The notes: generated by a model from the sequence alone, not told the origin. DNA of 64,000 nt from an uncultured Acidobacteriota bacterium (GCA_963832915.1 CAWHWE010000013.1:1644-65643), one strand, 5' to 3'. Positions 5,601 to 27,744 are shown, numbered from the stretch's first letter. Translations and numbers: made by a program.

Positions 5601-6113
5601 GTGAATCCCAATCCCGACCCCACCAAGCACTCCGAAATCCCGATCTGGAATGCCGAGAACTGGTTTTACGAAGATTTCGAGATCGGCCACAAGATCCGCT
5701 CCATCCGGCGCACCATCTCGGAAGGCGAAAGCATGCTCTTCAACGCCCTCATCCTCGATATGCACCCTTACGTGGGCGATCAGATCTTCGCCAGCACGGA
5801 AGGGGTGTTTGGCAAACGCCTGGTTGCCGGGGCCATGGTTTTCAGCTACGGGCTGGGACTGGTGGGTACAAATTGTGTGAACGCCTTCAGCTACGGGTAT
5901 GACAAGCTGCGCTTCATACGGCCGGTCTTTATTGGCGACACCATTTACACCATTCGGACCAACCTGGAGAAACGGCCAAAGAACAAAGAGAGGGGCTTGG
6001 TCAGATCCTGTTATGAAGTCTTCAAGAACGAGGGTGAGCTGGCGCTCTATTGCGAGCACCTGCGAACTGTAAAATACCGCGACCCGTCTCGCTGGCAGGG
6101 TCAAGCGGAATAG
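5601..6113 (+). CDS. MaoC-like (R)-specific enoyl-CoA hydratase / hot-dog fold dehydratase
   Basis: 170 aa; hot-dog fold size and conserved MaoC core (…[25 protein letters not shown]…). Confidence 0.7.
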
Positions 6114-6154
6114 TCAAGGTGGAATCAGAGGTTCCGCTAGGGGAAGAAGCCATC

Positions 6155-7324
6155 ATGGAAAGAACAGCAAACTGCAAGGCGAAGTTGGCGCGCATGAACA
6201 AGACGTTGCACCATCAGGAGGTGGATCGGGTCCCCATCAGCGACTTTTTTTGGGGCAGCTTTCTGGCGCGATGGCGTAAGGACCTTGGGCTTGCTCCCGA
6301 CACCGATGTTTATAAGTACTACGATCTCGATTGGGTGGTCACCATCCCCAACCTGGATCCTCACATCAAGCAGTTTGAAGTCCTCAAGGAAAATGAGGAA
6401 GAGGTGGTAGTCCGCACGGGGTTCGAAGCGGTGCTCCAAAAGCGCCTGGCTTATCCCATGCCAGCCTACCTCAGGTTCGATACCGATACGGTCGAAAAGA
6501 TGCAGGCGTTTCAATTCGATGATCCTTGGGATGAGCGGCGCTTCTTCAAAGCCGGTGACAACCAGATTGCAGGCGTCGGTGATGGTTTTGAGCGAAATTC
6601 TCCTGCCTGGATCGACAGTGTGAAGAAGAACTATCCGGATATCCCCGTTTACGGCAGCGTCTGCGAAGGCCAGGAGATGCTGTGGCGCATCCTCGGCACG
6701 GAACATGTGATGCTATGGATTGGGCTGCATCCTGAAGAAGTGGGAAAGTTTGTGGAGAGAATCAATCCCTTCTCCCTGGAACTCCTTAAGGCCCAAATCA
6801 GGGCAGCCGACGGCCTGCTGGACGGAATAGTCATCTGGGGAGACGTGGCCTACAAGCAAGGCCTTTTCTTCTCCCCCAACTATTGGCGCCAGTACTTCAA
6901 ACCCGGCGTGAAAGCCCTGGTGGAGGAATGCCACCTATGCGGGTTGCCGGTGATCTATCACGGCTGCGGAAATGTGCAGAGGATTTTCGAAGACTTTATC
7001 GAAGTGGGCGTGGACGCTTACAACCCGTTGGAGGCCAAGGCCGGTATGGACGTGGTCGAATTGCGGCGGAAATACGGCCACCGCATCGCGTTCTGTGGAA
7101 ACATGGATGTGATCCAGTGGGCGGAGGGAAGCCCGGAAGACCTGAAGCGGACCGTCCTGACCAAGTTGAACGCGGCCAAAGGCGGCGGGTACATCTTCCA
7201 GTCGGACCACTCCGTGCCCAGCAACGTGTCCGGACAGAACTACGACTACGTGGTCAAGCTGGTGCGTGAGTACGGGAAATACCCACTCCGCTTGGGGGAG
7301 TACGACCTTCCCGATTTAAAGTAG
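6155..7324 (+). CDS. Uroporphyrinogen decarboxylase (URO-D/MtaA-like) family protein, paralog 1
   Basis: N-terminal ...HHQEVDRVPISDFFW... (the x-x-DR-x-P signature of PF01208-type proteins); ~390 aa; start chosen at ATG 6155. Confidence 0.7.
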   Translation: MERTANCKAKLARMNKTLHHQEVDRVPISDFFWGSFLARWRKDLGLAPDTDVYKYYDLDWVVTIPNLDPHIKQFEVLKENEEEVVVRTGFEAVLQKRLAYPMPAYLRFDTDTVEKMQAFQFDDPWDERRFFKAGDNQIAGVGDGFERNSPAWIDSVKKNYPDIPVYGSVCEGQEMLWRILGTEHVMLWIGLHPEEVGKFVERINPFSLELLKAQIRAADGLLDGIVIWGDVAYKQGLFFSPNYWRQYFKPGVKALVEECHLCGLPVIYHGCGNVQRIFEDFIEVGVDAYNPLEAKAGMDVVELRRKYGHRIAFCGNMDVIQWAEGSPEDLKRTVLTKLNAAKGGGYIFQSDHSVPSNVSGQNYDYVVKLVREYGKYPLRLGEYDLPDLK

Positions 7325-7480
7325 TGGCGGAAGCGCTTTGGAGTGCGGTCCCGCGTGCGGGACCGCTCTTGTGCCGCGAGCTTGCTCGCGGTCATCTCGG
7401 CACGGAACGTCATCCAGGCCAGCAAGCTGGCCTGCAAGAAAGCGGCAGCAAGCTACCGCACTCCAAAGCTGGAGGTTTTT
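7325..7480. repeat. Structured intergenic element: outer stem GCGCTTTGGAGTGCGG/CCGCACTCCAAAGC enclosing three hairpins (GGTCCCGCGTGCGGGACC, CGCGAGCTTGCTCGCG, GGCCAGCAAGCTGGCC). It starts on the stop codon of the upstream gene.
   Basis: Palindromes read from the sequence. Confidence 0.6.
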
Positions 7481-8599
7481 ATGGATTCTAAAGAAAGACT
7501 CATGACGGCACTTCATAAGGGGAAGCCGGACCGGCTGCCGATTTCAGTCCACCAATGGCAGGCCTACCATCTCAAATACTTCCTGAATGGTATTTCGGCG
7601 CTGGAGGCCTTCCAGAAATTCGGCATGGATGCGCAGATCCAGTATTTCGGCGATGTGGGTCAAAGCGCCCTGGTTGATTATGATTTCACTAAATTCTCCA
7701 CTCCGGAATGGCACGATGAAGTTACCGCGGTCAGCAACGACCCCGACAACCGAATGGCCAATCATGCGATTCAAACCCCGGAGGGGATGCTGACCTATAA
7801 GACTCGTGGCGACCGGAAGACGACCTGGATCACCGAATACATGGTTAAACGCGATGAAGACATCGAGATCATTGACAAGTATTTGCCGGTGGGGAAACTG
7901 GATCTGGCCCCGGTGCAGACCCTCTACGATGAAGTCGGCGACAAGGGCATTCTGCGCGGGTTTGTTTGGGGAGACCAGGGCGGCTGCTGGCAACACGCCT
8001 GTTGCCTCATGGACGTCACCGAACTCATCATGCGCTGTATGGACAAACCGGACTGGGTTCATCGTTTGCTGACTATTCTTCTCCATAAGAAGCTCCGCTT
8101 CATCGAATCGATGAAAGGAGCCAAGTTTGACCTGGTTGAGACGGGCGGTGGAGCGGGTTCGTCCACGGTCATTTCTCCCAAATTGCACAGGGAGTTCTGC
8201 ACGCCTTACGACCGCAAAATGCATGACGCCCTGCACGACCTCGGATTCCTGGTGGCCTACCACACTTGCGGCGGGACGCGAGGAATCGAGGAATTGATTG
8301 TCGCCAATGGCGCGGACATTTCAGAGACGCTGGCCCCGACGAGCATTGGTGGAAATCAGGAACCCTGGGAATTCAAGCAAAAAGTGGGTAACAGGCTCGC
8401 CGTGATTGGCGGGCTTGACCAGTTCAACGTGCTCACCGCAGGGCCGGCCGAAAACATCCGGCAAACCGTGTGCACGCTCTTCGAGAAGGTCGGGCAGGAC
8501 GGAGGCTACGTCTGCTCGGTAAGCGATCACTTCTTCGATACGCCGGTCGAGCATCTCCAGGTGATGGCCGACGCGGCGAAAGAATGCGTCTATAACTGA
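7481..8599 (+). CDS. URO-D/MtaA-like family protein, paralog 2
   Basis: ...HKGKPDRLPISVHQW... signature; GGAGG RBS 8 nt upstream of ATG 7481. Confidence 0.7.
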   Translation: MDSKERLMTALHKGKPDRLPISVHQWQAYHLKYFLNGISALEAFQKFGMDAQIQYFGDVGQSALVDYDFTKFSTPEWHDEVTAVSNDPDNRMANHAIQTPEGMLTYKTRGDRKTTWITEYMVKRDEDIEIIDKYLPVGKLDLAPVQTLYDEVGDKGILRGFVWGDQGGCWQHACCLMDVTELIMRCMDKPDWVHRLLTILLHKKLRFIESMKGAKFDLVETGGGAGSSTVISPKLHREFCTPYDRKMHDALHDLGFLVAYHTCGGTRGIEELIVANGADISETLAPTSIGGNQEPWEFKQKVGNRLAVIGGLDQFNVLTAGPAENIRQTVCTLFEKVGQDGGYVCSVSDHFFDTPVEHLQVMADAAKECVYN

Positions 8600-8600
8600 T

Positions 8601-9710
8601 ATGACTATAAACTCAATAGAGATTCGTGTATGCCACAACACCCGCGCGGCCATGTCCGACTCGGAAATGCGCATGGGAGGAAGATCGACATTTGATTTCC
8701 TCGTCATTTCAATGAAGACCGACACGGGGATCGAGGCGAATTCCTTTGGATTTGCGGGACGCGGCGCCGGGATGGCCGGAGAGATTGCAGCCTCGGCGCT
8801 AAAGCCCTTCTTCCTGGGCAAAGACCCGCTGGCGCGGGAAAAACACTGGCAAGACTTCCGCACGTACGACCGCTGGTGGAACCACGTTCCGATTTATTCT
8901 TACGGCCCCTTTGACATCTGCCTTTACGACATCGCCGCCCAGATGGCGGGGCTGCCACTCTACAAACTGCTTGGCATGTACAGGGACAAGGCGCCCACCT
9001 ACGCGAGCTCCTTCGTGCTGCCGGCGCCCGAAGACTATGCCCGGCAGGCGCTGGAGGTTAAGAACAGGGGCTGGCACGCCTACAAGCTTCATCCCCCTGG
9101 AAAGGTTGACTTCGATCTGAGGGCGTACCGGGCCTGCCGGGAAGCTGTCGGCCCGGATTTCAAGCTGATGGCCGACCCGGTGGCGGCTTACTCCCACGAA
9201 GAGGCTTTGCGGGTGGGGCGCGAGCTCGAGCGGCTCAATTTCTATTGGTTGGAGGAACCCCTCTTCGACGTCGATTTCCACGGACTGCGAATGCTGACTG
9301 CCAAGCTGGACATCCCCATCATCGGCACCGAGGTGCTTGCCGGCTCGCACTACTCCACCGCGGACTGCATCGCCACGGGGGTGGTGGACATGGTCCGCAC
9401 TGATGTGTCCTGGAAGGGGGGTATTACGCCGGTCATGAAGACGGCCCACTTGGCGGAGTCCTTCGGGGTGAAGTGTGAGCTGCACACCGCCATCTACCAC
9501 CCGCTGGAAGTGGTGAACCTGCACTGCTGCTGCGCCATTTCCAACTCCGAGTTCTTCGAACTTTTGTACCCCCTCTCCTATATGGACTTTGGAATGAGAA
9601 GCCCATTGCAGATTGACGCCGAAGGCTACGCGCACCCTCCCGAGACGCCGGGGATCGGGGTTGAGTTCGATTGGAATTTTATCGACAACTGTACCATTAA
9701 GAAGCTGTAG
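8601..9710 (+). CDS. Enolase-superfamily (mandelate racemase/muconate lactonizing enzyme) sugar-acid dehydratase, candidate L-rhamnonate/L-fuconate dehydratase
   Basis: MR/MLE-type barrel segments (…KLHPPGKVDFDLRAYRACREAVGPDFKLMADP…EEPL…) and adjacency to rhaM. Confidence 0.7.
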   Translation: MTINSIEIRVCHNTRAAMSDSEMRMGGRSTFDFLVISMKTDTGIEANSFGFAGRGAGMAGEIAASALKPFFLGKDPLAREKHWQDFRTYDRWWNHVPIYSYGPFDICLYDIAAQMAGLPLYKLLGMYRDKAPTYASSFVLPAPEDYARQALEVKNRGWHAYKLHPPGKVDFDLRAYRACREAVGPDFKLMADPVAAYSHEEALRVGRELERLNFYWLEEPLFDVDFHGLRMLTAKLDIPIIGTEVLAGSHYSTADCIATGVVDMVRTDVSWKGGITPVMKTAHLAESFGVKCELHTAIYHPLEVVNLHCCCAISNSEFFELLYPLSYMDFGMRSPLQIDAEGYAHPPETPGIGVEFDWNFIDNCTIKKL

Positions 9711-9797: not shown

Positions 9798-10136
9798 ATG
9801 CAAGCGCCAAAGCTTAAGCGGTATGGACAGATCATCGGACTGAAACCGGGAGCCTACGATATGTACGTTGAGCACCATGCGAAGGTCTGGCCGGGAGTTT
9901 TAAAGACCATCTACGACTGCAACATTCGCAACTACTCAATATTCTACAAAGACAATACGCTCTTTGCTTATTTCGAATATATAGGCGACGCCTTCGAGGC
10001 TGACATGGCGAAGATGGCTGCGGACCCCACGACACAGGAATGGTGGGCTATCATGAAGCCGTTGCAGCAGCCGATCCCCACCCGCGCCGAAGGGGAATGG
10101 TGGGCCGATATGAAAGAGGTGTTCCACGTTGACTGA
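9798..10136 (+). CDS. rhaM: L-rhamnose mutarotase
   Basis: 112 aa; ...YVEHHAKVWPGVL...IRNYSIF... matches the RhaM/YiiL family. Confidence 0.8.
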   Translation: MQAPKLKRYGQIIGLKPGAYDMYVEHHAKVWPGVLKTIYDCNIRNYSIFYKDNTLFAYFEYIGDAFEADMAKMAADPTTQEWWAIMKPLQQPIPTRAEGEWWADMKEVFHVD

Positions 10137-10321: not shown

Positions 10322-11876
10322 TGTTGTGCCCCGATGATAATGTCCCCTTCTGTCACCGATAGAAATGTCCCCTAAACTCATGGCCTCTGAGGAGGCCACA
10401 GTGAAGAGGACGAGGATGGATGAGCGGGAGTTGAGGCGAGGGGCGGTGTTGTCACAGGTGGCGGGGAAGGGTTGGACTTTGGTGCAAGCTGCCGAGCGCA
10501 TGGGAGTGAGCTATCGGCAGGCGAGGCGATTGTGGAAGCGTTATCGAGTGAAGGGGACAAGGGGGCTGATGCATGGCAACGTGGGGCGGGCGTCGAACCA
10601 TGCCAAGCCGAAGAGTTTGCAGCGACGGGTCTTGGGGCTGATAGGGAAGAAGTACGGTGGAGAGCCCGGCGAGCGTTTCGGTCCCACGCTGGCGGCGGAG
10701 CACTTGGAGCAAGACGATCATGTCGCAATCGGGGTGGAGACGTTGCGGCAGTGGATGCTGGAGGCAGGATTATGGAGCCGGGAGCGGAGAGGGCGAGCGC
10801 ATCGGCGAAGGCGGGAGCGGAAAGCGCATTTTGGGGAGTTGGTGCAGTTGGATGGAAGTTTCCATGATTGGCTAGAAGGGCGAGGTCCGCGGGGTTGTCT
10901 GATGAACATGGTGGATGACGCGACGGGTACGACGCTGTGCCGGATGGGCAAGGAAGAGACGATCTGGGCGGCGGTGGGAGTGTTGGAGGCGTGGATGGAG
11001 TGCTACGGAGTGCCGCAGGCGTTGTACACGGACTGGAAGAACGTGTACGTGCGAGAGCCCAGCGCGCAGGAGCGGATGCGAGGAGAAGAGCCTGTGACGC
11101 AGTTCGGACGCATGTGCCGTCAATTGGGGATTGAGATCATCGCGGCCAGTTCGCCGCAGGCCAAGGGGCGGGTGGAGAGGAACCACGGGACGCATCAGGA
11201 CCGCCTGGTAAAGAAGCTTCGCGTACGAAACATAACGAGCCTAGAGGATGCCAATCGATACTTACAGGAGAAATACTGTGAGGAGCACAACACGCGTTTC
11301 GCGGTACGGCCGGCAGCCCCGCAGGACTTTCACTTGCCCAGCCCTGGGGTGCGGAAACTGGACAGCATTTTCCGGCTGGAGAGGGAGAGAGCGCTGAGCA
11401 ACGATTGGGTGGTACGCGATGAGAACCGCTTCTATCAGGTGGAGCGGCAGCGCCTGCATCACGCGCCAGCAAAGAGCAAGGTGAGGTTATGCGAGTGGGA
11501 GGATGGGAGGATCGAGATTCACTACCGAGGGCAGAAGCTCAGCTGGCAAGAGATCCCAGCACGCCCGCTCCCGAGAAAGCAAGAGGACGAACTTCCAGTG
11601 GCCATGGAGGCGACGAAGAAGAAGTGGAAACCAGGGCCGCACCATCCCTGGCGGATGGGCCCGTGGACTGACCGCACGCCGTTGGTCTCGGCCTCCGCTT
11701 CGCCCTAGACGCTCCGCCCTTCGGGCTCCGCAGGGCTTCGCTCCGGCCGAGACCAACGGCGTAACTCACCACTCCAGCAGAAACAAAGGGAGAGACAAAG
11801 TACGTGAAAGACAAAACCGAAAAAGAGGACATTTCTATTGGGTTAAGGATGGGGACATTTCTATCGGGGCTTGACA
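10322..11876 (+). mobile_element. ISNCY-family insertion sequence (~1555 bp). Its imperfect terminal inverted repeats are TGTTGTGCCCCGATGATAATGTCCCC... / ...GGGGACATTTCTATCGGGGCTTGACA. It is flanked by a 16-bp direct repeat TCACCCCAATTAATGC (10306-10321 and 11877-11892).
   Basis: IRs and direct repeats read from the sequence; the transposase lies inside. Confidence 0.7.
10365..11708 (+). CDS. ISNCY-family transposase (N-terminal HTH plus DDE integrase core)
   Basis: From memory, strong resemblance to proteins annotated 'ISNCY family transposase' (…VSYRQARRLWKRY…, …HRRRRERKAHFGELVQLDGSFHDWLEGRG…); internal start alternatives exist. Confidence 0.7.
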   Translation: MSPKLMASEEATVKRTRMDERELRRGAVLSQVAGKGWTLVQAAERMGVSYRQARRLWKRYRVKGTRGLMHGNVGRASNHAKPKSLQRRVLGLIGKKYGGEPGERFGPTLAAEHLEQDDHVAIGVETLRQWMLEAGLWSRERRGRAHRRRRERKAHFGELVQLDGSFHDWLEGRGPRGCLMNMVDDATGTTLCRMGKEETIWAAVGVLEAWMECYGVPQALYTDWKNVYVREPSAQERMRGEEPVTQFGRMCRQLGIEIIAASSPQAKGRVERNHGTHQDRLVKKLRVRNITSLEDANRYLQEKYCEEHNTRFAVRPAAPQDFHLPSPGVRKLDSIFRLERERALSNDWVVRDENRFYQVERQRLHHAPAKSKVRLCEWEDGRIEIHYRGQKLSWQEIPARPLPRKQEDELPVAMEATKKKWKPGPHHPWRMGPWTDRTPLVSASASP

Positions 11877-12229: not shown

Positions 12230-13453
12230 ATGAAGAAAGGAGAATCTGCGGTGATTTCGATGCAAAAATCAAATTCAATACCTAAGTATTTATCGTTGTA
12301 TTGCTACATGTGGGATGTTCTTGACGAAGGGATTAATTCCTTCGCTCATTTGGTCAAGGATGCGGGATTGAATAACATCTCGATGGCATCAACCTATCAC
12401 GGGGGGAAGTCGCTTAACCCTCACAATCGGAAAAATCACGTATATTTTATCGAAGAGGGGGCAATCTACTTCAAACCTTCGGGTGGATTCTTTGATAAGA
12501 CAAAGATGAAGCCCAGAGTCAGCCGGCTCGTTGCCGAGCGTGATTACTGGAAAGACATCGTGACTGCTTGTGAGAAACGTGGAATAGGGACCACGGCCTG
12601 GAGTGTTTTTCTCCACAATTCGTATTTGGGAGCCACATATCCTGAGTGCACGACGCAAAACGTTTTCGGAGACCACTACCTCCACTCACTGTGTCCTTCA
12701 CAGCCGGCAGTCATGGATTATATGCGTGCCCTGGCTCAGAATCTCGCCGCATACCCCATACAGGCAGTAGAGTTCGAGTGTTTTGACTTCACTCCTTTTC
12801 ACCATTATTCTTTTCTGGAAAAGGAGGGGACGAAGCTGACGCCTTTCGCAGATCTCCTCATGTCCATCTGCTTTTGTCCGGCATGTTTGTTGCAGGCGAA
12901 GCAGCGGCACGTTAAAGGGGGAGCTGTTGCCAAACTAACCAAGGGTTGGATCGAACAATACTTTGATGGGAAACACCGGCAGGAGAGAGCGCTCGAATCC
13001 GAAATTGCCACTATCCCCGGCCTGGCAGAGTATCTCCAGATGCGCTTTGAGGTGCTGGCCAACTGCTTCGCCGAAGTTACTGGGACGCTGAAAGCTCATG
13101 ATAAAAGGGCAATCTATATTGTCATCGATCAAGAGCAGCGGCTGAATTACATGAGGGGGTTGGATTTGCTCCAGGTTGGGTCGCATATGGACGCCATCGA
13201 GGTGTTGTTCTACCACCGTAAGTTGGCCGATGCGCCTGGAATCGTACGGAAGATTCGCCGTGCTACCGGGAATATACCAGAGGTTTACTTTGCGGTGAGA
13301 CCAGGCTATCCCGACGCCGACCGAGCGAAGGAAGTCGTCCGCATGACAGACGCGGTCGTCAACGCGGGGGTGAACGGAATCTCCTATTACAACTTTGGTC
13401 TCCTGGAAAAGTTCCATATGAACTGGGTCAAGCAGGCTATCCGCGCCTTGTAG
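12230..13453 (+). CDS. Hypothetical protein in a low-GC (~43%) segment, probably horizontally acquired; family unrecognised, TIM-barrel-like hydrolase is a guess
   Basis: Clean 407-aa ORF; AT-rich codon usage, a sharp contrast to its neighbours; lies immediately 3' of the IS. Confidence 0.45.
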   Translation: MKKGESAVISMQKSNSIPKYLSLYCYMWDVLDEGINSFAHLVKDAGLNNISMASTYHGGKSLNPHNRKNHVYFIEEGAIYFKPSGGFFDKTKMKPRVSRLVAERDYWKDIVTACEKRGIGTTAWSVFLHNSYLGATYPECTTQNVFGDHYLHSLCPSQPAVMDYMRALAQNLAAYPIQAVEFECFDFTPFHHYSFLEKEGTKLTPFADLLMSICFCPACLLQAKQRHVKGGAVAKLTKGWIEQYFDGKHRQERALESEIATIPGLAEYLQMRFEVLANCFAEVTGTLKAHDKRAIYIVIDQEQRLNYMRGLDLLQVGSHMDAIEVLFYHRKLADAPGIVRKIRRATGNIPEVYFAVRPGYPDADRAKEVVRMTDAVVNAGVNGISYYNFGLLEKFHMNWVKQAIRAL

Positions 13454-13563: not shown

Positions 13564-14568
13564 ATGAGATTCTTCCTTGGAGATGGCGTCATGAAACCTG
13601 CAGACTTTAATCCGGAAAAGTTCGATCGAGGTGGGAAATACACGCTTTACCTCGAATTGGGGCCGGCCGCCAGTAATATCGAATTGCCGGTTTTGCTGGT
13701 CCGTGGAAGTCGGCCGGGAAAAAGACTTGTGGTATCGGCAGCCGTGCACGGCGACGAATACGAAGGGGTCCGAACCATATATGATGTGTACCACGCACTC
13801 GACCCCGCGAACCTGAGCGGAGACTTCCTTTCCGTGCCCGTGTCAAACCCACCCGCATTCTGGAACGGCACCCGGTCGAGTCCGCTCGACGGCGGCAATC
13901 TCGCACGTGTTTTTCCCGGGAGTTTGGAAGCTGGCCCTACCGCCGCGATTGCGTATCATATGGCGGCTTCGATTATTGCGCATGCCGACCTGTATCTGGA
14001 TCTGCATAGTGCTGGAGTCAAGTTGCTGATGCCCACGATGATCGGTTATGACGCCGGGGATGTGCGTTCTCGGGACGCGGCGTATGCCTTCGGTGCAAAG
14101 GTCCTCTGGGGACATCCCGGAACTGCGCCGGGCCGCACCATAACGTTCGCGGCCCAAAAAAATATCCCTTGGCTGTACACTGAGGCGCATGGGGCGGGCC
14201 GCATCGACCCCGCAGATCTCGAAATATTTGTAGAGGGCGTTTTTAATCTGTTGCGTCATTTAAACATCATATCCGGCCCGCTTCGAACTAACCCGGTAGA
14301 GTGGCATCTATACGGCGCCGGGGACATTGATAAAGGTTTTGTGGCCAGTCAGCGCGGCTTCTTAGTGACATCGGCCACCTTATTCCAAAGGGTCCGCGCT
14401 GGGGACAGGCTGGGGTATCTTTGCGACCTACTAGGGAAAACGATTGAAACCTACCTCGCCCCAACCGACGGAGTAGTCGCGATGATCAGAGCGTTCCCGG
14501 CGGTCGAACCTGGCGAACCCTTGTTCTTATTAACTGACCTGCTGGGGGACAGCTCGCAAACGAGCTAA
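13564..14568 (+). CDS. Succinylglutamate desuccinylase/aspartoacylase (AstE/AspA) family Zn deacylase
   Basis: …SAAVHGDEYEG… (the HGxE zinc motif) and the fold size of the AstE/AspA family. Confidence 0.7.
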   Translation: MRFFLGDGVMKPADFNPEKFDRGGKYTLYLELGPAASNIELPVLLVRGSRPGKRLVVSAAVHGDEYEGVRTIYDVYHALDPANLSGDFLSVPVSNPPAFWNGTRSSPLDGGNLARVFPGSLEAGPTAAIAYHMAASIIAHADLYLDLHSAGVKLLMPTMIGYDAGDVRSRDAAYAFGAKVLWGHPGTAPGRTITFAAQKNIPWLYTEAHGAGRIDPADLEIFVEGVFNLLRHLNIISGPLRTNPVEWHLYGAGDIDKGFVASQRGFLVTSATLFQRVRAGDRLGYLCDLLGKTIETYLAPTDGVVAMIRAFPAVEPGEPLFLLTDLLGDSSQTS

Positions 14569-18677: not shown

Positions 18678-18884
18678 TTTTTTCACTAGCGAGACTCCCT
18701 TCCAGCAGTAGTTTGTAGTACCTTCGCGGCGCTCGAAGATTTCTCCGTGTGCTCCGTGGCCAAAAGAACCTAACACAGAGATCACTGAGACCCTCCGTGC
18801 TCTCTGTGTTTACGCTTTCCAGGCTCGGAGAACACGGAGAATTGCCTTTTGGTTGCGACCGCGGGCCGCGCTATAGAGTAATGC

Positions 18885-20198
18885 TCAATTCGATCGCCTA
18901 AGCCCATCACAAGCCTTACGCACTGCTGCCAGAGTAACGCCAACGTCAGCTTCAGTATGCACGGCTGAGACGTACCATCGGCCGTCGGGCAACAAATAAA
19001 TCCCTTCCCCGAGCATCCCTTCAATGAATTGGTCCCGCATTCCATCGTCCCGGTTCAGGGTCTCGCGATAGTTGCTCATCTTCTTGGCAGCAGTGAAGCT
19101 GATATGGAATGCAGCCCCGACTCCGTTGATCAAGGCGGGGATGCCTGCTTCAGCCAGAGCAGCTTCAATGCCCTTCTTGAGGTATTCACCCGTTTGTTGG
19201 GTGCGTATTAAAGCGGAGCCACCATCGGCAGACAGAACCTCCAGCGCCGCCTCGGAGGCTGCAAGAGCCAGCGGGTTGCCATTGAAAGTGCCTGCCTGCA
19301 CCACGCGGCCCTTGGGAATCAGTTCCATAATCTCCCTTTTTCCCGCCACCACGCTCAACGGGTAACCAGCGGCGACGGCCTTTCCGAAGGTGGCCAGATC
19401 AGGTGTCACGTTGAAGAGACCCTGTGCTCCTTTTGGATGCACGCGAAATCCTGTTATGACCTCGTCAAAAATCAGAACGATTCCGTACCGCGTCGCCAGC
19501 TCCCGCAAGCTTTCGAGAAAGCCGGGGGAAGGCATCAGGCAGCTACTATTACAAAGGATCGGCTCGGTGATAATCGCGGCAATCTCCTGATAATGTTCAC
19601 GGAGAGTATTTTCAAGTTCTTTAAGGTCATTCCACGGCAGGATGTAAACATCGTCGAGCACGCGCTCGCTCTGCCCCTCGGTGCCCATCTGCTTTGCGTT
19701 GGTTCCGTCTTCTGCCACCTTCGGGTGATAATTTATGAGGATGTTATCGAACCAGCCGTGATAATGGCCCTCGAACTTAATGAACTTCCGCCTCCCCGTA
19801 TGCGCCTTTGCCAGGCGCAAGGCCAGGTGGACTGCTTCCGAGCCCGTGCTGTTAAAGGCCACAAGCTGCGCGCAAGGGACCATTTCACATATCTTGCGCG
19901 CGACGGCGGTTTCCAAGCGATGTTGCGCGCCGATCAGGCAGAACTTCTCGAGCTGGCGCCGGACGGCGGCGATTACTGCGGGATGACTGTGCCCAAGCAT
20001 GAGCGGCCCCCAGGCAAGTCCGTAGTCCAAGTACTGGTTGCCATCCACGTCAACAATTCGGTTCCCCGAAGCGGATTCAAAGAACAGAGGAACCGGCTTG
20101 CAGGCGGCGCGGAGCATGCTGCTGACCCCACCGGCGAGGTAGCGCTTTGACTCGTTAAACATCTCAGCCGAACAGGCATAAGTTCTCATATCAGTCAC
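18885..20198 (-). CDS. Class-III (aspartate aminotransferase family) PLP aminotransferase, glutamate-1-semialdehyde aminomutase-like
   Basis: …LIFDEVITGFR… and …TFGKAVAAGYP… (PLP-lysine region) are class-III hallmarks. Confidence 0.8.
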   Translation of the reverse strand: MTDMRTYACSAEMFNESKRYLAGGVSSMLRAACKPVPLFFESASGNRIVDVDGNQYLDYGLAWGPLMLGHSHPAVIAAVRRQLEKFCLIGAQHRLETAVARKICEMVPCAQLVAFNSTGSEAVHLALRLAKAHTGRRKFIKFEGHYHGWFDNILINYHPKVAEDGTNAKQMGTEGQSERVLDDVYILPWNDLKELENTLREHYQEIAAIITEPILCNSSCLMPSPGFLESLRELATRYGIVLIFDEVITGFRVHPKGAQGLFNVTPDLATFGKAVAAGYPLSVVAGKREIMELIPKGRVVQAGTFNGNPLALAASEAALEVLSADGGSALIRTQQTGEYLKKGIEAALAEAGIPALINGVGAAFHISFTAAKKMSNYRETLNRDDGMRDQFIEGMLGEGIYLLPDGRWYVSAVHTEADVGVTLAAVRKACDGLRRSN

Positions 20199-20595: not shown

Positions 20596-21660
20596 ATGAC
20601 TTCCAGAGAAAGAGTGATGGCTGCCTTCCAACACGAAGAACCCGACCGCGTGCCAGCGTGGTGCGGGTCGTCGATTGAGTTTTGGGAAAAGGCTAAGCGG
20701 ACCTCCGGGCTTCACGACGAAGGACTACGTCTGCGCTTCGGTGATGACTTTCGCCGGGTTTTTCCCGTCTATGCCGGGCCCCAGTTTACCCTGTCCCCTG
20801 GCGCGACTTCCCGAACCCCCTTCGGCATCGAGCGCGAGGGTCTCGGTTACGGGCAACCCAAAAGTCATCCGTTATCCAGCGCCGCTCTGGCGGAAGTTCA
20901 CGCCTATCCCTGGCCCGAGCCGCGGTGGATGGATGTTTCTCACATCCGTGCCGAAGCGGACAAGTACCAAAGGCAGTACGCAATTCTGGGTGGGGATTGG
21001 TCACCCTTCTTCCACGACGCCGTAGACATGCTGGGCATGGATGTTCTGTTCCTTAAAATGTACGACGAACCGGAAGTTGTGGATGCGGTCGTGCAGCACA
21101 TCATGGATTATTATGTGGGCGTCAGCCAGCGAATTTTCGATGCCGCTGCCTCAGCCATCGACATTTTCTTTATTGGAAACGATTTCGGAACTCAGCGGGG
21201 CCCTCTGATGAGCCCGAGTCTCTTCCGGCGGTTCATCCTGCCTCACCTCAAGCGACTGGCTCGCCTGGGCCATGAATATGGATTGAAAGTCATGATGCAT
21301 TGTTGCGGTGGGTACGCTCCTCTCATCCCCCAGATGATCGAGGCTGGACTGGATGGCCTGCATGCGGTCCAGCCGTCTTGTGATGGGATGGATCTGGCGA
21401 CGCTGAAGCGTTCCTTCGGTGACAAGATCCTCTTCAATGGCGGGATCGACTCTCACCATGTGCTGATCCGGGGAACACCCGAGTTCGTCCGCGAAGAAGC
21501 GAGAAAAGTTCTCGACATCATGAAACCGGGTGGAGGCTATGTGGCAGGCGCCAGCCACGACTGGATTCTCGAGGAGACGCCCGTGGAGAACGTTCTGGCC
21601 ATGTTTGACGCGATCTGTGAATTCGGCAGCTACAACTCTGGCGATTCTCGATCGCGTTGA
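20596..21660 (+). CDS. URO-D/MtaA-like family protein, paralog 3
   Basis: …FQHEEPDRVPAW… signature; start chosen at ATG 20596. Confidence 0.7.
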   Translation: MTSRERVMAAFQHEEPDRVPAWCGSSIEFWEKAKRTSGLHDEGLRLRFGDDFRRVFPVYAGPQFTLSPGATSRTPFGIEREGLGYGQPKSHPLSSAALAEVHAYPWPEPRWMDVSHIRAEADKYQRQYAILGGDWSPFFHDAVDMLGMDVLFLKMYDEPEVVDAVVQHIMDYYVGVSQRIFDAAASAIDIFFIGNDFGTQRGPLMSPSLFRRFILPHLKRLARLGHEYGLKVMMHCCGGYAPLIPQMIEAGLDGLHAVQPSCDGMDLATLKRSFGDKILFNGGIDSHHVLIRGTPEFVREEARKVLDIMKPGGGYVAGASHDWILEETPVENVLAMFDAICEFGSYNSGDSRSR

Positions 21661-21739
21661 CCTCTCGAATACGATGAAGATGAAAACCCCTGGGCAACTA
21701 CAGCAAATATTCCGGGGGTTCGTTGTTAGGAGGCAATTG

Positions 21740-22600
21740 ATGTCTGGTTTCCGAGGCCGATCCACTAACCGACGCCTGTTGTTGCTCCTTGGGGCTCTCG
21801 CAGTATTCTTATTCCAAACCACTATATTCGTTTCCTTCTTAGTGGGCAGCGCGCCGGGAAGCATCCACTTGGTTCTTCGGACTCGCGTACAGCCATTCAA
21901 GGGGAGCGGCCAGTGGGTGGAGGTCAACTTCGTCGAGAATCTCCCGCCTAAGGAAACGGCGATTGTAATCTGCGACATGTGGGATAAGCATTGGTGCAAG
22001 GGCGCTACAGGACGAGTGGATGCGCTCGCCCATCGTATGTCACCACTCCTGAAATTGGCTAGAGCGCGGGGCGTGCAGATCGTCCACGCCCCCTCAGACG
22101 TCATGGATTTCTATAAGGATTATCCCCAAAGGCGTCTGATGCAGAGCTTGGCAAAGGTTCAGCCACCGCAGGCCCTCGATCTTTCGGATCCGCCGCTGCC
22201 GATTGATGATTCCGACCGCGGATGCGATACGCCGGGAGATAAGGAGCACCAGGCCTGGAGCCGCCAGCATCCTGCAATTGATATTGAGCCTCAGGACGTA
22301 ATTTCCGACGATGGAAACGAAGTCTATAGCTTTTTGCATGAACGAGGCATCCAATACTTGTTCATAATGGGGGTGCACGCCAACATGTGCGTCTTGGGGC
22401 GATCCTTTGCGATCAGGCAGATGACGCGTTGGGGCATCCACTGCATCTTGGTCCGGGATCTCACGGATGCCATGTATAACCCCGCAATGAAGCCCTATGT
22501 CTCGCACGGGCAAGGTACGCAACTGGTGATTGAGCACATTGAGAAGTACTGGTGCCCATCAATTCTGAGTGCGGACCTGCAAACGGGCCTGAAACCGTAA
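21740..22600 (+). CDS. Isochorismatase-like cysteine hydrolase with an N-terminal membrane anchor
   Basis: …IVICDMWDKHWC… and …MGVHANMCVLGRS… resemble the isochorismatase-family catalytic D/K/C pattern; AGGAGG RBS 6 nt before ATG 21740. Confidence 0.55.
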   Translation: MSGFRGRSTNRRLLLLLGALAVFLFQTTIFVSFLVGSAPGSIHLVLRTRVQPFKGSGQWVEVNFVENLPPKETAIVICDMWDKHWCKGATGRVDALAHRMSPLLKLARARGVQIVHAPSDVMDFYKDYPQRRLMQSLAKVQPPQALDLSDPPLPIDDSDRGCDTPGDKEHQAWSRQHPAIDIEPQDVISDDGNEVYSFLHERGIQYLFIMGVHANMCVLGRSFAIRQMTRWGIHCILVRDLTDAMYNPAMKPYVSHGQGTQLVIEHIEKYWCPSILSADLQTGLKP

Positions 22601-22665: not shown

Positions 22666-24015
22666 ATGGCAATCAACAGAAGGCGATTTTTGGAAAGGAG
22701 TATTCAGGGAGGATTCGGTGTCGCGGCAGGCGTGTACGGATTACAAGCGGCATCGAAAGCGGCTGCTGCGAGCGACAAGGTTGTCGTGGGGGTGATGGGA
22801 GTGGGAGGCCGAGGGACTTTCCTGACGCAATTGTTCGCCTCCAGGCCGGACGTTGAAATTGCCTACATCTGCGATGTGGATAGCCGGAAGTTCCCGCACG
22901 CAGTAAAGCTTGTGGAAGACATCAAGGGAAGAACCCCCAAGACAGTTGGAAATTTCCAACGCATCCTCGAGGACAAGAATGTTGATGCGATGGTTTGCGC
23001 CACGCCTGACCATTGGCATGCTATGGCCACCGTCCTCGCCTGTCAAGCAGGTAAGGACGTTTACGTCGAAAAACCGGCTTCCCATAACATCTGGGAAGGC
23101 CGGAAGATGGTGGAGGCAGCGCGCAAGTACACGCGAGTGGTACAGGTCGGGATGCAAAATCGGAGCAGCACATCTGGCAAGAGTGCGCGCGAGATGATTC
23201 AGTCCGGAAAGCTGGGTAGTATTCATCTTGTGCGTGTCTACAACATGTTAAACCGGGAGCCTGTGGAGAGAACGCCAAACGCCGCAGCGCCGGAAGGATT
23301 TGATTGGAACATGTGGGTGGGTCCCGGACCACTGGTCCCCTATGACCCCATGTATTTCAAGAGGGTTTTCTGGGATTTTAACGGAGGGCTCATGACTGAC
23401 GATGGAGTTCATCAATTGGACTTGGCTCGCATGGTTATGGGCCTGTCCTATCCCAAGTCCGTTCACCATGCGGGCGGAAAGCTCTTCTTTAATGACATCT
23501 CGGAAACCCCCGACACGACGATTGTGACCTATGAGTATGACAAGCTGCGGCTGGTATTCGAACAGACCGTTTGGACTCCTTATATGAAGAAGACTCCCGA
23601 CAGTATAAGGGAAAGTCTGACCCAGTTTCCCGATTGGTTCCCCTTCAACGCGACCAGAATAGAAATATTCGGACGCAAGGGCCTGATGCTTCTGGGGCGA
23701 CAAGGAGGAGGATGGCAGCTCTACAACGAGGAAGGGAGCGTGATTGCGACGGGCAAGCAGAGGCACTCGGAAATGCAGGCGGGACATGTGGAGAACTTTA
23801 TAAGTTGTATCCATAGCCGGAAGCACCCCAATGCCGACATCGAGGAGGGCCACACTTCCGCCGCGCTATGCCACATGGCAAATATCTCCTATCGGTTGGG
23901 GGACCGAAAGCTGGAATTCGACAGTTCCAAAGAGGCCTTTGTAGATAATAAGGAAGCAAACCATTACTTGAAGCGGTCTTATCGCAATCCCTGGGTGATA
24001 CCCGAGAGCGTGTAG
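22666..24015 (+). CDS. Gfo/Idh/MocA-family oxidoreductase, TAT-exported
   Basis: Twin-arginine signal MAINRRRFLE; Rossmann VGVMGVGGRG; EKP motif VYVEKPASHN. Confidence 0.85.
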   Translation: MAINRRRFLERSIQGGFGVAAGVYGLQAASKAAAASDKVVVGVMGVGGRGTFLTQLFASRPDVEIAYICDVDSRKFPHAVKLVEDIKGRTPKTVGNFQRILEDKNVDAMVCATPDHWHAMATVLACQAGKDVYVEKPASHNIWEGRKMVEAARKYTRVVQVGMQNRSSTSGKSAREMIQSGKLGSIHLVRVYNMLNREPVERTPNAAAPEGFDWNMWVGPGPLVPYDPMYFKRVFWDFNGGLMTDDGVHQLDLARMVMGLSYPKSVHHAGGKLFFNDISETPDTTIVTYEYDKLRLVFEQTVWTPYMKKTPDSIRESLTQFPDWFPFNATRIEIFGRKGLMLLGRQGGGWQLYNEEGSVIATGKQRHSEMQAGHVENFISCIHSRKHPNADIEEGHTSAALCHMANISYRLGDRKLEFDSSKEAFVDNKEANHYLKRSYRNPWVIPESV

Positions 24016-24212: not shown

Positions 24213-24257
24213 CCCACTACTCAAAACTTGAAACCAAAAACAACCACTCGAGGTTTT

Positions 24258-25298
24258 ATGGCCATTGAAGACTATGTCAGTTCTTCGCGTCGGAAGTTCC
24301 TCAGGAGTGTGGCGGGAGCCGGAGCCATGGCCGGCCTGTCGAGCATTCGGTCCAGCGATGCCGAACCGGGCAGAACTCTCAGCCGAGTGCAGACTTGTTA
24401 TTTTTCAAAACACTTGCAATGGCTCAACTGGGATCAAATGGCGGAGACCGCCGCTGAATTGGGGTTTGATGGTATCGATGTGACGGTGCGAGACGGAGGC
24501 CACGTCCTGCCTGAGCGCGTGAAAGAAGACCTGCCCAAAGTCGCGAGAATTGTCAGGAAGGCTGGCTTGGATATCCCGATGATTACGGCTGGAATCGTGG
24601 ACATCCACTCGCCTTATGCGGAAGCCATTATTCGCACGGCCAGCGAGGTTGGTATTCATCGCTACAGGTGGGGTTGGTTTTCCTGGTCGGATACAGCCAA
24701 GGAACCCGATCTGTCAAACTTCCACGCGAGCCTTGGAAAGGCCTCCGCAATCCTTATTGATATCCCTGGCCGGCTCGCCGAGTTGAAAAAGCGTGTTGCG
24801 GAGTTGGCGGAACTGAACCGGAAGTTCAACGTCTGTGCCATGTACCATAACCACTCAGGCTCAATGGTGGGCGCTTCAGTGTGGGATCTTTGGGTGCTGC
24901 TTAAGGACTTCGACCCACGATGGGTGAGTTCCAATTTCGACATTGGCCATGCCACTGTAGAGGGCGGATTGGGCGGATGGATCAATAGCACACGTCTGAT
25001 GACCCCTTTTATTAGGGGGACAGCAATCAAGGATTTCAAATGGGAGAGAAATGCGAAAGGCGTTTGGGAACCCCAGTGGTGTCCGCTTGGGGAAGGGATG
25101 GTGAACTTCCGGGCGTTCTTCGCCATGTTGAAAGAAGGTAACTTCTCCGGCCCTGTGCAGTTGCACACTGAATACCCGCTGGGCGGAGTGGAAAATGGCG
25201 CTCGAACATTAACCTTGGAAAAGGAAACGGTCTTGGCTGCGATCCGCAAAGACCTTGCTGCCTTAAAGGCGTGGATGAGAGAGGCACAATTGGTTTAG
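24258..25298 (+). CDS. Sugar-phosphate isomerase/epimerase (xylose-isomerase-like TIM barrel), TAT-exported
   Basis: TAT motif SSRRKFLRS; AP-endonuclease-2/xylose-isomerase-like TIM signatures (…NFDIGHATVEGG…). Confidence 0.75.
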   Translation: MAIEDYVSSSRRKFLRSVAGAGAMAGLSSIRSSDAEPGRTLSRVQTCYFSKHLQWLNWDQMAETAAELGFDGIDVTVRDGGHVLPERVKEDLPKVARIVRKAGLDIPMITAGIVDIHSPYAEAIIRTASEVGIHRYRWGWFSWSDTAKEPDLSNFHASLGKASAILIDIPGRLAELKKRVAELAELNRKFNVCAMYHNHSGSMVGASVWDLWVLLKDFDPRWVSSNFDIGHATVEGGLGGWINSTRLMTPFIRGTAIKDFKWERNAKGVWEPQWCPLGEGMVNFRAFFAMLKEGNFSGPVQLHTEYPLGGVENGARTLTLEKETVLAAIRKDLAALKAWMREAQLV

Positions 25299-25409
25299 CG
25301 CGGGGGTTGCTTGGTTATATCGGCCCATCTGATCCCTGCTGGCCGTGCAAGTGACCCCTCACCCGGCCCGCGTCCCGATGAAGTGCATCGGGATCGCGGG
25401 CCACCCTCT

Positions 25410-25520
25410 CCCCTTGGGAGTCTGTGTGATAACTCGATATTTCGCCCTTTTCCACAATGCAAGTGACTGATTCTCCGTTGGCGAAAACGCGAAATCAGAG
25501 GTTGTCACACAGACTCCTTG
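25410..25520 (+). promoter_or_regulatory. Long imperfect stem-loop in the 5' leader of URO-D paralog 4 (GGAGTCTGTGTGATAAC ... GTTGTCACACAGACTCC, 17-bp arms ~60 nt apart): candidate attenuator or riboswitch-like leader
   Basis: Inverted repeat read from the sequence; function inferred. Confidence 0.3.
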
Positions 25521-25597
25521 GGAGAGGTCAAAACCCAATTCCCTTCCGCCATTGCGGAGAAATCCCGGCTAGCTTCTTCACATCGGAAGGAGATGAA

Positions 25598-26731
25598 ATG
25601 ATGACTCACCGAGAGCGAATTTTAGCAGCCCTGAAGCACAAGGAGCCAGATCGGGTTCCTCTTGACCTGGGCGCTACGGGAGCCACCACGATATCGGTCA
25701 AGGCCCATGAGCGATTACGGGCCCACCTTGGCCTCCCGTCGGAGCCGCCACCCGCTGTGTTCTCCACCCGCTCCACGACGGTGGTTCCTGACGAAGCTAT
25801 CCTGCGTCGTTTTGACGTCGACGCCCGCCCCCTTTCACTTGGAAATCCAACGGACCGGCCAGAGCGTAAGCTTTCCGAGGATACGTTGTTGGACGAGTGG
25901 GGAGTAACCTGGACAAGGCCTGGTGGCACCCATTACATAAACTCCGACGGCCCTTTCTGCCATCTTGCAGACCCTGCCCTTCAGGACCTCGAGAAGGCCG
26001 ATTGGCCCGACCCGGCAGACGCAGGCCGCTTTGAGGGGCTTCGAGATCGAGCCCGGAGACTGCACAAAGAGACGGATTACGCCGTGATCTTAAACCTCGG
26101 CATAGGCCCCGTCCATGAGTGCCAGTATGTTCGCGGCTATGCGACGTGGCTCGAGGATCTCTTGCTCCGCCCCGTCTTCTCCGAAGCCCTCCTCGACCGG
26201 GTCACCGACATCATGATTCAGATGGCGAATTGCGCCTTGGAAGAGGCGGGCGCGTACGTTGATTTGGTCATGTATGGCGACGATATCGCCACCCAGAATG
26301 CTACCCTGCTCCGACCGGAATTGTATCGGCGGATGATTAAGCCCCGGCATAAGGGGATAGCCAACGCCATAAAGCGTCACGGGAAGCCGATTGTTTTCCA
26401 CTCCTGCGGTTCTGTTTACGCCCTTATCCCAGACCTGATTGAGGTGGGAATCGATGCCCTGAACCCCGTCCAGGTTTCAGCGGCAAATATGGCTACGGAG
26501 CGCCTTAAGCAGGAGTATGGACGTGAATTGGCTTTTTGGGGAGGAATCGACACGCATCGAGTGCTGCCCACCGGAACGCCTGCGGAAGTGCGCGAAGAAG
26601 TGAAGCGCCGCATCGACGATTTGCACGACAATGGCGGTTACGTCCTTTGTGCCGTGCACAACATCCAGCCCGAGGTTCCCCCGGAGAACATCGTGGCGAT
26701 GTATGACGCTGCCCTTGAGTACGGGCGCTAA
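25598..26731 (+). CDS. URO-D/MtaA-like family protein, paralog 4
   Basis: …[13 protein letters not shown]… signature; AAGGAG RBS 6 nt before ATG 25598. Confidence 0.7.
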
Positions 26732-26745
26732 TCAGGGAGGATGCC

Positions 26746-27744
26746 ATGAAGGCCTGTTTGCTCCATTCGCCCGCGCGGGTCGAGACCAATCCACTCGACT
26801 TCACTGACGTGCCGGATCCAGTGGTCCAAGACGATCAGGTGCTGGTCCGGGTTGCCGCCTGCGGGGTCTGCCGGACGGACCTGCACGTGGTCGAGGGAGA
26901 GTTGCCGGCGCGCAAGTCACCCGTGATTCCGGGGCATCAGGTGGTGGGCCGCATTGAGAGGATGGGTCCCGAGGCCAGCCGTTTCCACCTCGGCGACCGG
27001 GTTGGCATCCCCTGGCTTCATCACACCTGTGGGGTCTGCGAGTATTGCCGCGCGGGGAAGGAGAACCTCTGCGACGCACCCACATTCACGGGATACGTCG
27101 TGGACGGCGGCTATGCGGAGTATGCGCTGGCAGCAGAGAAATTCGTCTACCCCATTCCCGAGGGCCTCGCGGACGAGCAGGCAGCGCCGCTACTCTGCGC
27201 CGGGATTATCGGCTTCCGCTCGCTGCGCCTCTCGGGCATCGAGCCACGCGGCAGGCTGGGTTTATACGGCTTCGGGGCGGCGGCCCACCTGGCCATCCAG
27301 GTAGCTCGGCACTGGAACGTCGCCGTCTACGCCATGACCCGCGACGTGCGCCACCAAAAGCTGGCGCTCGAGTTAGGAGCTGTGTGGGCAGGCGGGACGG
27401 TCGAGGAACCGCCTGCAAAACTCGATGCCGCTATTATCTTTGCGCCTGCCGGTGAAATTGTGCCCGCGGCCTTGAAGGCTCTGAAGAAAGGTGGAACCCT
27501 CGCGCTGGGCGGCATCCACATGAGCCCCATCCCGCCACTCGATTACAACTTGCTCTACGGCGAGCGTGTCCTGCGCAGCGTCGCCAATAACACTCGCCAG
27601 GACGGCGAGGATTTCCTCCGCCTCGCCGCCGAAATCCCCATTCATAGCGAGATCGAGGTATTCCCGCTGCGCGAGGCCAATCGGGCGCTGAATTCACTCA
27701 AGAACGACGCTATCCGCGGCGCCGCCGTGCTGCGGGTCAACTGA
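26746..27744 (+). CDS. Zn-dependent alcohol dehydrogenase (MDR superfamily)
   Basis: …[14 protein letters not shown]…, GHQVVG and structural-zinc cysteines [15 protein letters not shown]. Confidence 0.85.

Follow-up and report, generated by a model that had tools for sequence, protein, structure and literature searches.

The DNA analyzed here is a 64-kb stretch (referred to below as the window, at its full length) from an uncultured member of the Acidobacteriota, and our analyses focused on a 22-kb block within it (positions 5601-27744). This block is a genuine cluster of sugar-related genes of a peat or soil acidobacterium, probably put together as a patchwork of small cassettes rather than as one new pathway. 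It begins with a gene for a MaoC-like (R)-hydratase (5601..6113, + strand; PF01575, 44.5 bits), which is the conserved left border of a variable slot, and ends with the conserved right border, a Zn-dependent alcohol dehydrogenase (ADH) gene (26746..27744, +; TIGR02822, score of 381 versus a cut-off of 283.5). The open reading frames (ORFs) of the window were classified by Pfam and NCBIfam profile searches, with the NCBIfam equivalog cut-offs as thresholds.

Between these borders, at least four separable cassettes (A-D) may be distinguished. Cassette A, as proposed, comprises (i) a gene encoding the first of four proteins resembling the uroporphyrinogen decarboxylase (URO-D) family (URO-D1; 401 amino acids (aa), motif YHGCGN; 6119..7324, +, with the start taken from the gene call in the comparison loci L001/L178; PF01208, 75.9 bits), (ii) its paralog URO-D2 (approximately 414 aa, motif YHTCGG; 7355..8599, +; PF01208, 74 bits), (iii) an enolase-superfamily acid-sugar dehydratase (8601..9710, +; MR_MLE_C, 167.8 bits), and (iv) a RhaM-family mutarotase (9798..10136, +; PF05336, 114.6 bits). 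It is followed by a strain-specific insertion sequence (IS) of the ISNCY family (10323..11875, +), whose transposase gene (10365-11708) exceeds the equivalog cut-off (NF033594, 390.6 bits versus 250).

Cassette B would consist of genes encoding (i) a GHL10-like putative glycosidase (12230..13453, +; 381-407 aa depending on the start codon), assigned through its family profile only, (ii) an AstE/AspA-family Zn deacylase of DoeB-like type (13564..14568, +; PF24827, 101 bits; TIGR02994, 100 versus 403), (iii) a secreted protein resembling the N-terminal domain of neutral ceramidases (14650..15999, +; PF04734, 40 bits, N-terminal part only), (iv) a RhaT-family permease (16015..17043, +; PF06379, 65.5 bits) and, in convergent orientation to these, (v) an MlrC/M81-family metallopeptidase-like protein (17205..18785, -; PF07364, 314.8 bits and PF07171, 164.4 bits) and (vi) a class-III aminotransferase similar to glutamate-1-semialdehyde aminomutase and GntE (18885..20198, -; PF00202, 223 bits; NF000818, 391 versus 398). 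Cassette C is proposed to contain URO-D3 (347-373 aa, motif MHCCGG; 20617..21660, +; PF01208, 106.6 bits) and an isochorismatase-like hydrolase with an N-terminal hydrophobic anchor (~21677..22600, +; weak match to PF00857, 29.7 bits), the start codon of which is uncertain (207 aa in the L178 gene call). Cassette D, finally, would combine a Gfo/Idh/MocA oxidoreductase with a twin-arginine translocation (TAT)-type N-terminus, MAINRRRFL (22666..24015, +; Pfam), a TAT-type xylose-isomerase-like TIM-barrel protein (24228..25298, +; PF01261, 78.6 bits; TIGR01409, 17.7 versus a cut-off of 16.7), and URO-D4 (376 aa, motif FHSCGS; 25601..26731, +; PF01208, 115.5 bits), the last presumably cytoplasmic and the first two exported. 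The approximately 277 bp separating the TIM and URO-D4 genes (25293-25568) are absent from two same-species contigs (L178 and L180).

In these searches every domain call listed for the interval in a preliminary description, made from the sequence alone, was reproduced, and so were its two negative statements: no short-chain dehydrogenase/reductase (SDR), lactonase or aldolase, as expected of a canonical rhamnose route, was found within 5.6-27.7 kb, and no dedicated regulator was found within the 22-kb block. The description had overlooked the ISNCY element and the 407-aa ORF (12230-13453) next to it.

The gene arrangement is real, since four independent JGI metagenome contigs of the same species (loci L178-L181, where L-numbers denote comparison loci; 95-98% nucleotide sequence identity with positions 3.9-26.2 kb of the window) and a second NCBI assembly share its order. 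The latter contains a 13.8-kb contig whose accession order matches the window from the ceramidase-like gene to the Gfo/Idh/MocA gene. An assembly chimera was rejected on this agreement. In a sibling strain (L178/L179; 97% nucleotide sequence identity) the IS is absent and two deletions within the enolase-superfamily gene (window positions 8604-9263 and 9504-9697) have left a 71-aa remnant (6412-6660 of the contig), while URO-D1, URO-D2, rhaM and the other genes are intact. At the left edge of the slot the same strain carries an additional gene of approximately 2 kb (L178 776-2826 versus window 4642-4920; 521 aa, faint PGAP1 match) between the NAD-epimerase and MaoC genes, which is missing from the window.

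The full 22-kb gene order was found only in these same-species contigs. In more distant relatives, various parts of the block are joined directly to one another. In L090 (~90% nucleotide sequence identity) the window segments 8607-10160, 20548-21670 and 26736-27122 are contiguous and form the order URO-D2'-enolase-rhaM-URO-D3-ADH, in which rhaM is joined straight to URO-D3 and URO-D3 straight to the ADH gene; 10.4 kb of the IS and cassette B are lacking, as is the segment from the isochorismatase-like gene through Gfo and TIM to URO-D4. L091 departs from the window after rhaM and runs into a multihaem cytochrome gene. L170/L171 carry genes for GH123, URO-D2 (85%), Gfo, TIM, URO-D4 and ADH, with URO-D2 abutting Gfo, and downstream of ADH the polysaccharide deacetylase, guanylate-kinase-like and flotillin genes that also follow it in the window. 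In L003 the MaoC gene (88% identical) directly abuts Gfo-TIM-URO-D4-ADH, and backbone synteny extends to 37.6 kb of the window. In L003 and L170 the Zn-ADH orthologs (88%) precede the same genes as in the window.

These comparisons are best accommodated by a species-specific patchwork that would fill a variable chromosomal slot in the genome of a member of the Terriglobia (Acidobacteriota). The slot appears to be delimited by the conserved MaoC gene on one side and by a conserved backbone (Zn-ADH, polysaccharide deacetylase, guanylate-kinase-like and flotillin genes) on the other; relatives would hold other combinations of the cassettes, and the window the largest combination seen in the MaoC-to-ADH interval. 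Several points weigh against this view. The whole 20-kb order is stable within the species across four metagenomes, and most genes lie on one strand with short gaps, as a single large functional unit would look. The contigs behind L090 and L091 are short metagenome contigs (3.5-4.8 kb) and could in principle be chimeric. Moreover, an ancestral large cluster may have been decaying in the relatives, instead of cassettes being gained in the lineage of the window. A scan for promoters and terminators that might mark operon borders gave counts at or below shuffled expectation and was uninformative.

The looseness of the block is apparent in cassette B. A set of 80 loci anchored on the ceramidase-like gene was compiled from GTDB species representatives (10-kb flanks; 40-85% identity to the window protein, three loci at 80-85%), spanning Acidobacteriota, Verrucomicrobiota, Planctomycetota and others. 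Within 10 kb of the anchor, none of these loci contains an AstE, RhaT, MlrC, URO-D, enolase or rhaM homolog, and a class-III aminotransferase gene occurs in a single locus. All-versus-all clustering of the neighbours revealed no recurrent partner, the largest family being present in 6 of the 80 loci. Linkage among the cassette B genes was found nowhere outside the species. The ceramidase-like protein itself matches PDB 4WGK (E 3.6e-5), and its ATHTH motif is invariant in the alignment. On a Bryobacteraceae contig (L049, 3632-15528), a 12-kb interval beside a Gfo/Idh/MocA gene holds four paralogs of ceramidase-like type that share 29-60% identity with the protein of the window.

The 407-aa ORF is located in the kilobase with the lowest GC content of the block (12-13 kb, 48.9%). 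Although the protein itself has no Pfam or PDB match, it belongs to a family with at least 1422 cluster representatives, and 14 of 26 aligned members match PF02638 (GHL10; best E 2.5e-7). The family profile also weakly matches the peptidoglycan hydrolase Cwp19 (5OQ2); a single-sequence AlphaFold2 (AF2) model of the ORF was unusable (pLDDT 33). Judging from family names only, cassette B may represent a set of scavenging genes, gathered at the strain level, that would act on N-acylated or peptide-linked glycans, and cassettes B and C would be independent hydrolase and uptake sets.

The context of cassette A was examined in 86 loci anchored on the enolase-superfamily gene, including 80 metagenome loci with orthologs 78-92% identical to the window protein; an ortholog in marine Bacteroidota is 69% identical. 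In approximately 30 loci rhaM lies directly downstream (+1.2 kb), as in the window, and in a separate clade of approximately 45 loci a RhaT-family gene is divergent from the enolase gene (-0.2 kb). The contexts further include SDR, FAH hydrolase, GD_AH, IclR, Amidohydro_2, RraA-like, GH29 and SusC/D genes. For instance, L133 shows the order MFS, SDR, GD_AH dehydratase, IclR, FAH hydrolase, RhaT and enolase, L084 carries Amidohydro_2 and LacI genes near the ortholog, and a Bacteroidota polysaccharide utilization locus (PUL) contains SusC/D, GH29 fucosidase, GH35, RraA-like, Amidohydro_2, enolase, SSF transporter, rhaM and Gfo genes.

Non-phosphorylating L-fucose and L-rhamnose routes proceed through a FucM/RhaM mutarotase, a dehydrogenase, a cog3618 lactonase and an acid-sugar dehydratase, followed by an aldolase or by an SDR and a FAH hydrolase (LRA1-6, FucA-H) (PMC11199699; see also PMC10444878). 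Because the ortholog contexts match these routes, the window enzyme is most likely a 6-deoxy-hexonate dehydratase (L-fuconate or L-rhamnonate type) of a lineage for which NCBIfam has no name yet. Its scores are below all equivalog cut-offs, the best being talarate/galactarate dehydratase (136 versus 500), with L-rhamnonate dehydratase (RhamD/YfaW, NF011968) at 77.5 versus 393; the closest solved relative is 1RVK/4HCD (215 bits). RhaM (TIGR02625, 47.1 versus 99.6) and RhaT (NF010022, 226 versus 369) likewise score below the equivalog cut-offs and above the Pfam thresholds. By these profile scores, the "rhamnose" labels on the three proteins are family-level calls only. The preliminary description had taken rhaM, RhaT and the dehydratase as hallmarks of a non-phosphorylative L-rhamnose route; what holds of this is that the dehydratase with rhaM or RhaT is a real, conserved module of apparently deoxy-hexose type, in contexts that agree with the published routes, while the labels themselves do not reach beyond the family.

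Like these pathways, the window has a dehydratase gene adjoining one for a RhaM-type mutarotase, and its orthologs sit with route genes and in the PUL with a GH29 fucosidase. In contrast, the block has no dehydrogenase, lactonase, aldolase or hydrolase of the route, and its dehydratase is flanked by URO-D-like genes, is not a YfaW/RhamD equivalog, and is dispensable in the sibling strain. The remaining route genes were found near the orthologs in L084, L086 and L133, unlike in the window. Cassette A might thus supply the cytoplasmic dehydratase and mutarotase steps of an L-fucose/L-rhamnose-type route, as the contexts in relatives suggest, with the dehydrogenase, lactonase and cleavage steps presumably encoded elsewhere in the genome.

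Two further features of the enolase-anchored loci were noted. A large multihaem cytochrome gene (Paired_CXXCH_1), often with a gene for a TPR protein, is located just past enolase-rhaM in L084 (11722-13977), L085 (4606-6861), L091 (2221-4497) and L133 (11182-15250), being downstream in L084, L085 and L133 and convergent, on the opposite strand, in L091; nothing comparable is present at this place in the window. Five loci with 88-89% enolase identity carry a MaoC paralog (71-74%) at a distance of 2.6 kb upstream of the enolase gene, namely L084 (5655-8465) and, in the corresponding segments, L092, L094, L096 and L101. In L084, the only one of these loci with Pfam calls there, it stands between two CoA_transf_3 genes beside an SBP_bac_8 gene, whereas the MaoC gene of the window stands alone.

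Cassette D resembles another known type of system. In oxidative glycoside cleavage, a Gfo/Idh/MocA glycoside 3-dehydrogenase oxidizes the substrate at C3, and a xylose-isomerase-like TIM-barrel lyase then performs beta-elimination; examples are the BT_2158/2159-type pairs, DgpA/B/C acting on C-glycosides, and LgdA/B acting on levoglucosan. The window has the corresponding genes next to each other, both with twin-arginine-type N-termini (RRRFL in Gfo; the TIGR01409 match in TIM). The best NCBIfam match of the Gfo protein is the BT_2158_fam glycoside 3-dehydrogenase (NF058561), although its score is far below the family cut-off (139 versus 750), and its best PDB matches are 8TDF/8TDH, followed by DgpA; for the TIM protein no close solved relative was found. 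By family resemblance and adjacency, Gfo and TIM may carry out periplasmic oxidation of glycosides at C3 and subsequent elimination, with a cytoplasmic follow-up by URO-D4 and possibly the ADH. We know of no described oxidative glycoside cleavage system that includes a URO-D-like gene after the Gfo/TIM pair, as in the window.

The location of the TIM gene, often with Gfo, next to URO-D4 is a conserved linkage. The Gfo-TIM-URO-D4 triad is kept in L003 and L170, and outside the species the TIM gene lies within 5 kb of a URO-D4-type gene in five of the seven informative contexts (L003, L170, L172, L175 and L182). The two genes overlap in L172; in L182 the URO-D4 homolog has genes for a TIM protein and an FGGY kinase at 1.5-4 kb, and in L175 (Chloroflexota) a ROK-TIM-Gfo group is divergent to a URO-D-like gene. 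In L173 and L183 the genes surrounding the URO-D4 homolog are unrelated.

Pairwise identities among the four URO-D-like proteins are only 22-29%, which marks them as old paralogs rather than recent duplicates. Their scores are far below the cut-offs of the described members of PF01208: 40 (URO-D1), 69.6, 88.7 and 84.2 against 235.4 for MtaA/CmuA (TIGR01463), and 23-30 bits against 303, or no match, for HemE (TIGR01464). URO-D4 has more than 4800 homologs, typically of 376 aa, and its closest solved sequence is MtaA (4AY7, E 8e-9); an AF2 model of the protein (pLDDT 91) matches the fold of 4AY7 (TM 0.68-0.75), then HemE structures, and the fold search returned no structure closer than these two. 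In the alignment with MtaA, H-S-C of URO-D4 corresponds to the Zn ligands H-I-C, and a C-terminal His corresponds to the Cys of PGCG. H-x-C-G and the C-terminal His are present in all four paralogs, the third ligand position thus being His where MtaA has Cys. The four proteins are predicted to have an MtaA-like TIM-barrel fold, as modelled for URO-D4, and a probable His/Cys/His metal site. The Cys is replaced by Asp in a Chloroflexota homolog (H-S-D-G) and in two Subdoligranulum homologs (D-S-D-G), and a general divalent-metal site therefore fits better than obligatory thiolate-Zn methyl transfer. No corrinoid (B12-binding) protein was found among the ORFs scanned across the 64 kb, and the context in the window is carbohydrate catabolism, unlike the methanogenesis, acetogenesis or haem synthesis associated with MtaA/CmuA and HemE. 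Given the absence of a B12-binding protein from the window and the non-conserved Cys, a reading of these genes as corrinoid-dependent O-demethylases was down-weighted.

The clustering of URO-D genes in the window exceeds chance: four are present in 21 kb, versus none in 1.23 Mb of ceramidase-anchored DNA and six, all of them in near relatives, in 1.01 Mb of enolase-anchored DNA. URO-D1 orthologs (70-73%) are located 5-9 kb from the enolase gene, on the other strand, in L084, L092, L094, L096 and L101. URO-D2 precedes the enolase gene in L090/L091 and abuts Gfo on its upstream side in L170/L171 (85%), and the URO-D3 ortholog of L090 (89%) is placed between rhaM and ADH; a comparison of URO-D2 with a plasmid collection gave no match. 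Several URO-D-like paralogs, 24-34% identical to those of the window, also occur among GH2, GH78, GH38, sugar ABC transporter, ROK, Gfo and TIM genes in Subdoligranulum variabile (OY725838) and Chloroflexota ZRK35 (CP069395). The former contains the loci AraC-GH2-U-U-ROK-U-GH78 (U, URO-D-like; GH78, alpha-L-rhamnosidase) and U-sugar ABC-U-GH38-U-two-component. These loci differ from the window in belonging to other phyla, in having ABC transport instead of RhaT/TAT, and in lacking enolase and rhaM. The unannotated record OY725838.1 (L176/L177, 85-104 kb and 60-80 kb) carries six URO-D-like genes on one 110-kb replicon, together with AraC-type two-component regulators. The association of URO-D-like genes with carbohydrate genes is thus real and non-random, but patchy. 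The preliminary description knew of no characterized pathway with this gene set, and our searches, too, found none including URO-D-like genes; nor did searches of 7.7 million PMC papers and of bioRxiv yield literature linking the URO-D family to rhamnose, glycoside-hydrolase or such loci.

This association invites an alternative to the patchwork, namely that the URO-D-like enzymes are the functional core of the slot and represent a novel, metal-dependent class that modifies sugars (by cleaving ethers, removing methyl groups or processing keto-sugars, for example), with enolase/rhaM and Gfo/TIM as alternative partners supplying their substrates or consuming their products. It would explain why every slot variant keeps at least one URO-D-like gene beside sugar genes (URO-D2-enolase-rhaM-URO-D3 in L090, URO-D2-Gfo-TIM-URO-D4 in L170, Gfo-TIM-URO-D4 in L003), and it agrees with the TIM/URO-D4 overlap of L172, the divergent arrangement in Chloroflexota, the GH2/GH78 and ABC/GH38 loci of Subdoligranulum, the local gene density, and the H-x-C and C-terminal His shared by the four paralogs and aligned with the MtaA Zn ligands. 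However, approximately 70 of the 80 metagenome loci, including the whole RhaT-linked clade, have no URO-D-like gene within 10 kb of the enolase gene; the URO-D4 homologs of L173 and L183 are in unrelated surroundings; the Asp-for-Cys replacements make a common thiolate-Zn chemistry doubtful; and no corrinoid protein is encoded in the window. On balance we consider a URO-D-centred supercluster rather unlikely, if the most serious competitor of the patchwork. Within the patchwork, the four proteins are the recurrent element of the slot in relatives, and their most likely role is a cytoplasmic one, on substrates derived from sugars.

The preliminary description had proposed a single catabolic island, taking in the entire block, for the degradation of a deoxy-sugar conjugate with amide or ester substituents, such as an acylated or amino-acid-linked rhamnoside; in this model the hydrolases strip the substituents, RhaT imports the sugar, and the enolase-superfamily enzyme and RhaM feed a modified non-phosphorylating route. 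The gene content is as described, its order is kept in the four same-species contigs, and the mixture of exported (ceramidase-like, Gfo, TIM and isochorismatase-like) and cytoplasmic proteins is like that of a complete uptake and degradation system; the URO-D-like genes beside a GH78 alpha-L-rhamnosidase in Subdoligranulum would also fit. The comparative data nevertheless turned against this proposal. Relatives at ~90% and 75-85% nucleotide sequence identity (L090, L170 and L003) hold subsets of the block joined exactly at gene borders, and the 80 ceramidase-anchored loci reveal no conserved partner of that gene. The RhaT of the window is only 32-36% identical to the enolase-linked RhaTs of other Acidobacteriota and is a different paralog. 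Most of the dehydratase gene has been lost from a sibling strain in which every other gene is retained, the IS sits in the middle of the block, and no regulator, dehydrogenase, lactonase or aldolase ties the parts together. The genes are thus scattered in related genomes, the very observation that the description had named as evidence against itself, and we regard a single rhamnoside island as very improbable.

The ISNCY element is a typical member of its family, with a transposase above the equivalog cut-off, terminal inverted repeats and a long target duplication; nothing about this simple IS is unusual, and beyond its one gene it carries no passengers. A perfect 17-bp inverted repeat is present at 10356-10372 and 11851-11867, this pair occurring once in the window, and the element is flanked by a 17-bp direct repeat (ATCACCCCAATTAATGCT), the target duplication. 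L178 has an empty site at this position, the element is missing from the contigs of the same species, and a contig break occurs there in the NCBI version of this metagenome-assembled genome. The IS inserted between cassettes A and B in the window strain only. Its neighbours were not carried in by it, given that it is bounded by a target duplication of its own and that the sibling strain has the site unoccupied. IS-borne or composite-transposon delivery of cassette B was ruled out on the same grounds, together with the presence of a single IS. A second transposase gene (33406-34494, -; DDE_3 with HTH_32/28/29, IS630-like) is located outside the block, and L003 aligns on both sides of it (window positions 32725 and 34668) without this segment.

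Arrival of the whole block in one piece, as a genomic island gained by horizontal transfer or as a composite transposon mobilized by an IS, to which the two transposases, the lower GC content of the block (54-57%, falling to 48.9% at 12-13 kb, versus 58-62% in the flanks) and the variable presence of its parts among relatives might point, is scarcely credible given the simple insertion of a single IS, the lack of any integrase, tRNA or flanking direct repeat found at the block, and the 70-90% identical orthologs of the cassettes at the same slot in related Acidobacteriota, which indicate a vertical history with gain and loss.

The remainder of the window is composed of housekeeping genes (nusA-infB-truB, rimP, pdxS, ferritin and similar genes). 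Among them, a gene for a 427-aa protein consisting almost entirely of ankyrin repeats is located at 35480-36763 (+). A GntR-aminotransferase fusion (MocR-type regulator; 56403-58926, -) adjoins pdxS (SOR_SNZ) in the usual PdxR-pdxS layout and is unrelated to the block.

As a whole, the block seems to be an ordinary case of soil and peat Acidobacteriota shuffling small sugar-scavenging cassettes in variable slots, and its annotation as a new rhamnoside pathway is not warranted. As a type it is a variable carbohydrate-catabolic locus, which is an already known kind, and its unexplained component is the set of URO-D-like paralogs. The value of the block lies in pointing to these enzymes, a branch of the very large family PF01208 that occurs in carbohydrate loci of at least three phyla without a corrinoid partner. 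It is conceivable, though rather unlikely, that they form a corrinoid-independent, metal-dependent TIM-barrel class for carbohydrate catabolism, whose partners in Acidobacteriota, Chloroflexota and gut Firmicutes would be the cassettes for 6-deoxy-hexonate dehydratase and glycoside 3-dehydrogenase. They might, for example, remove ether-linked (e.g., O-methyl) groups from deoxy-sugars or process keto-sugars released by Gfo/TIM pairs. If this were true, a large branch of a family associated only with haem synthesis and methyl-corrinoid chemistry would gain a sugar function. Many proteins labelled "uroporphyrinogen decarboxylase family" in gut and environmental genomes would then have to be interpreted anew, and a gap in the degradation of decorated glycans might be closed.

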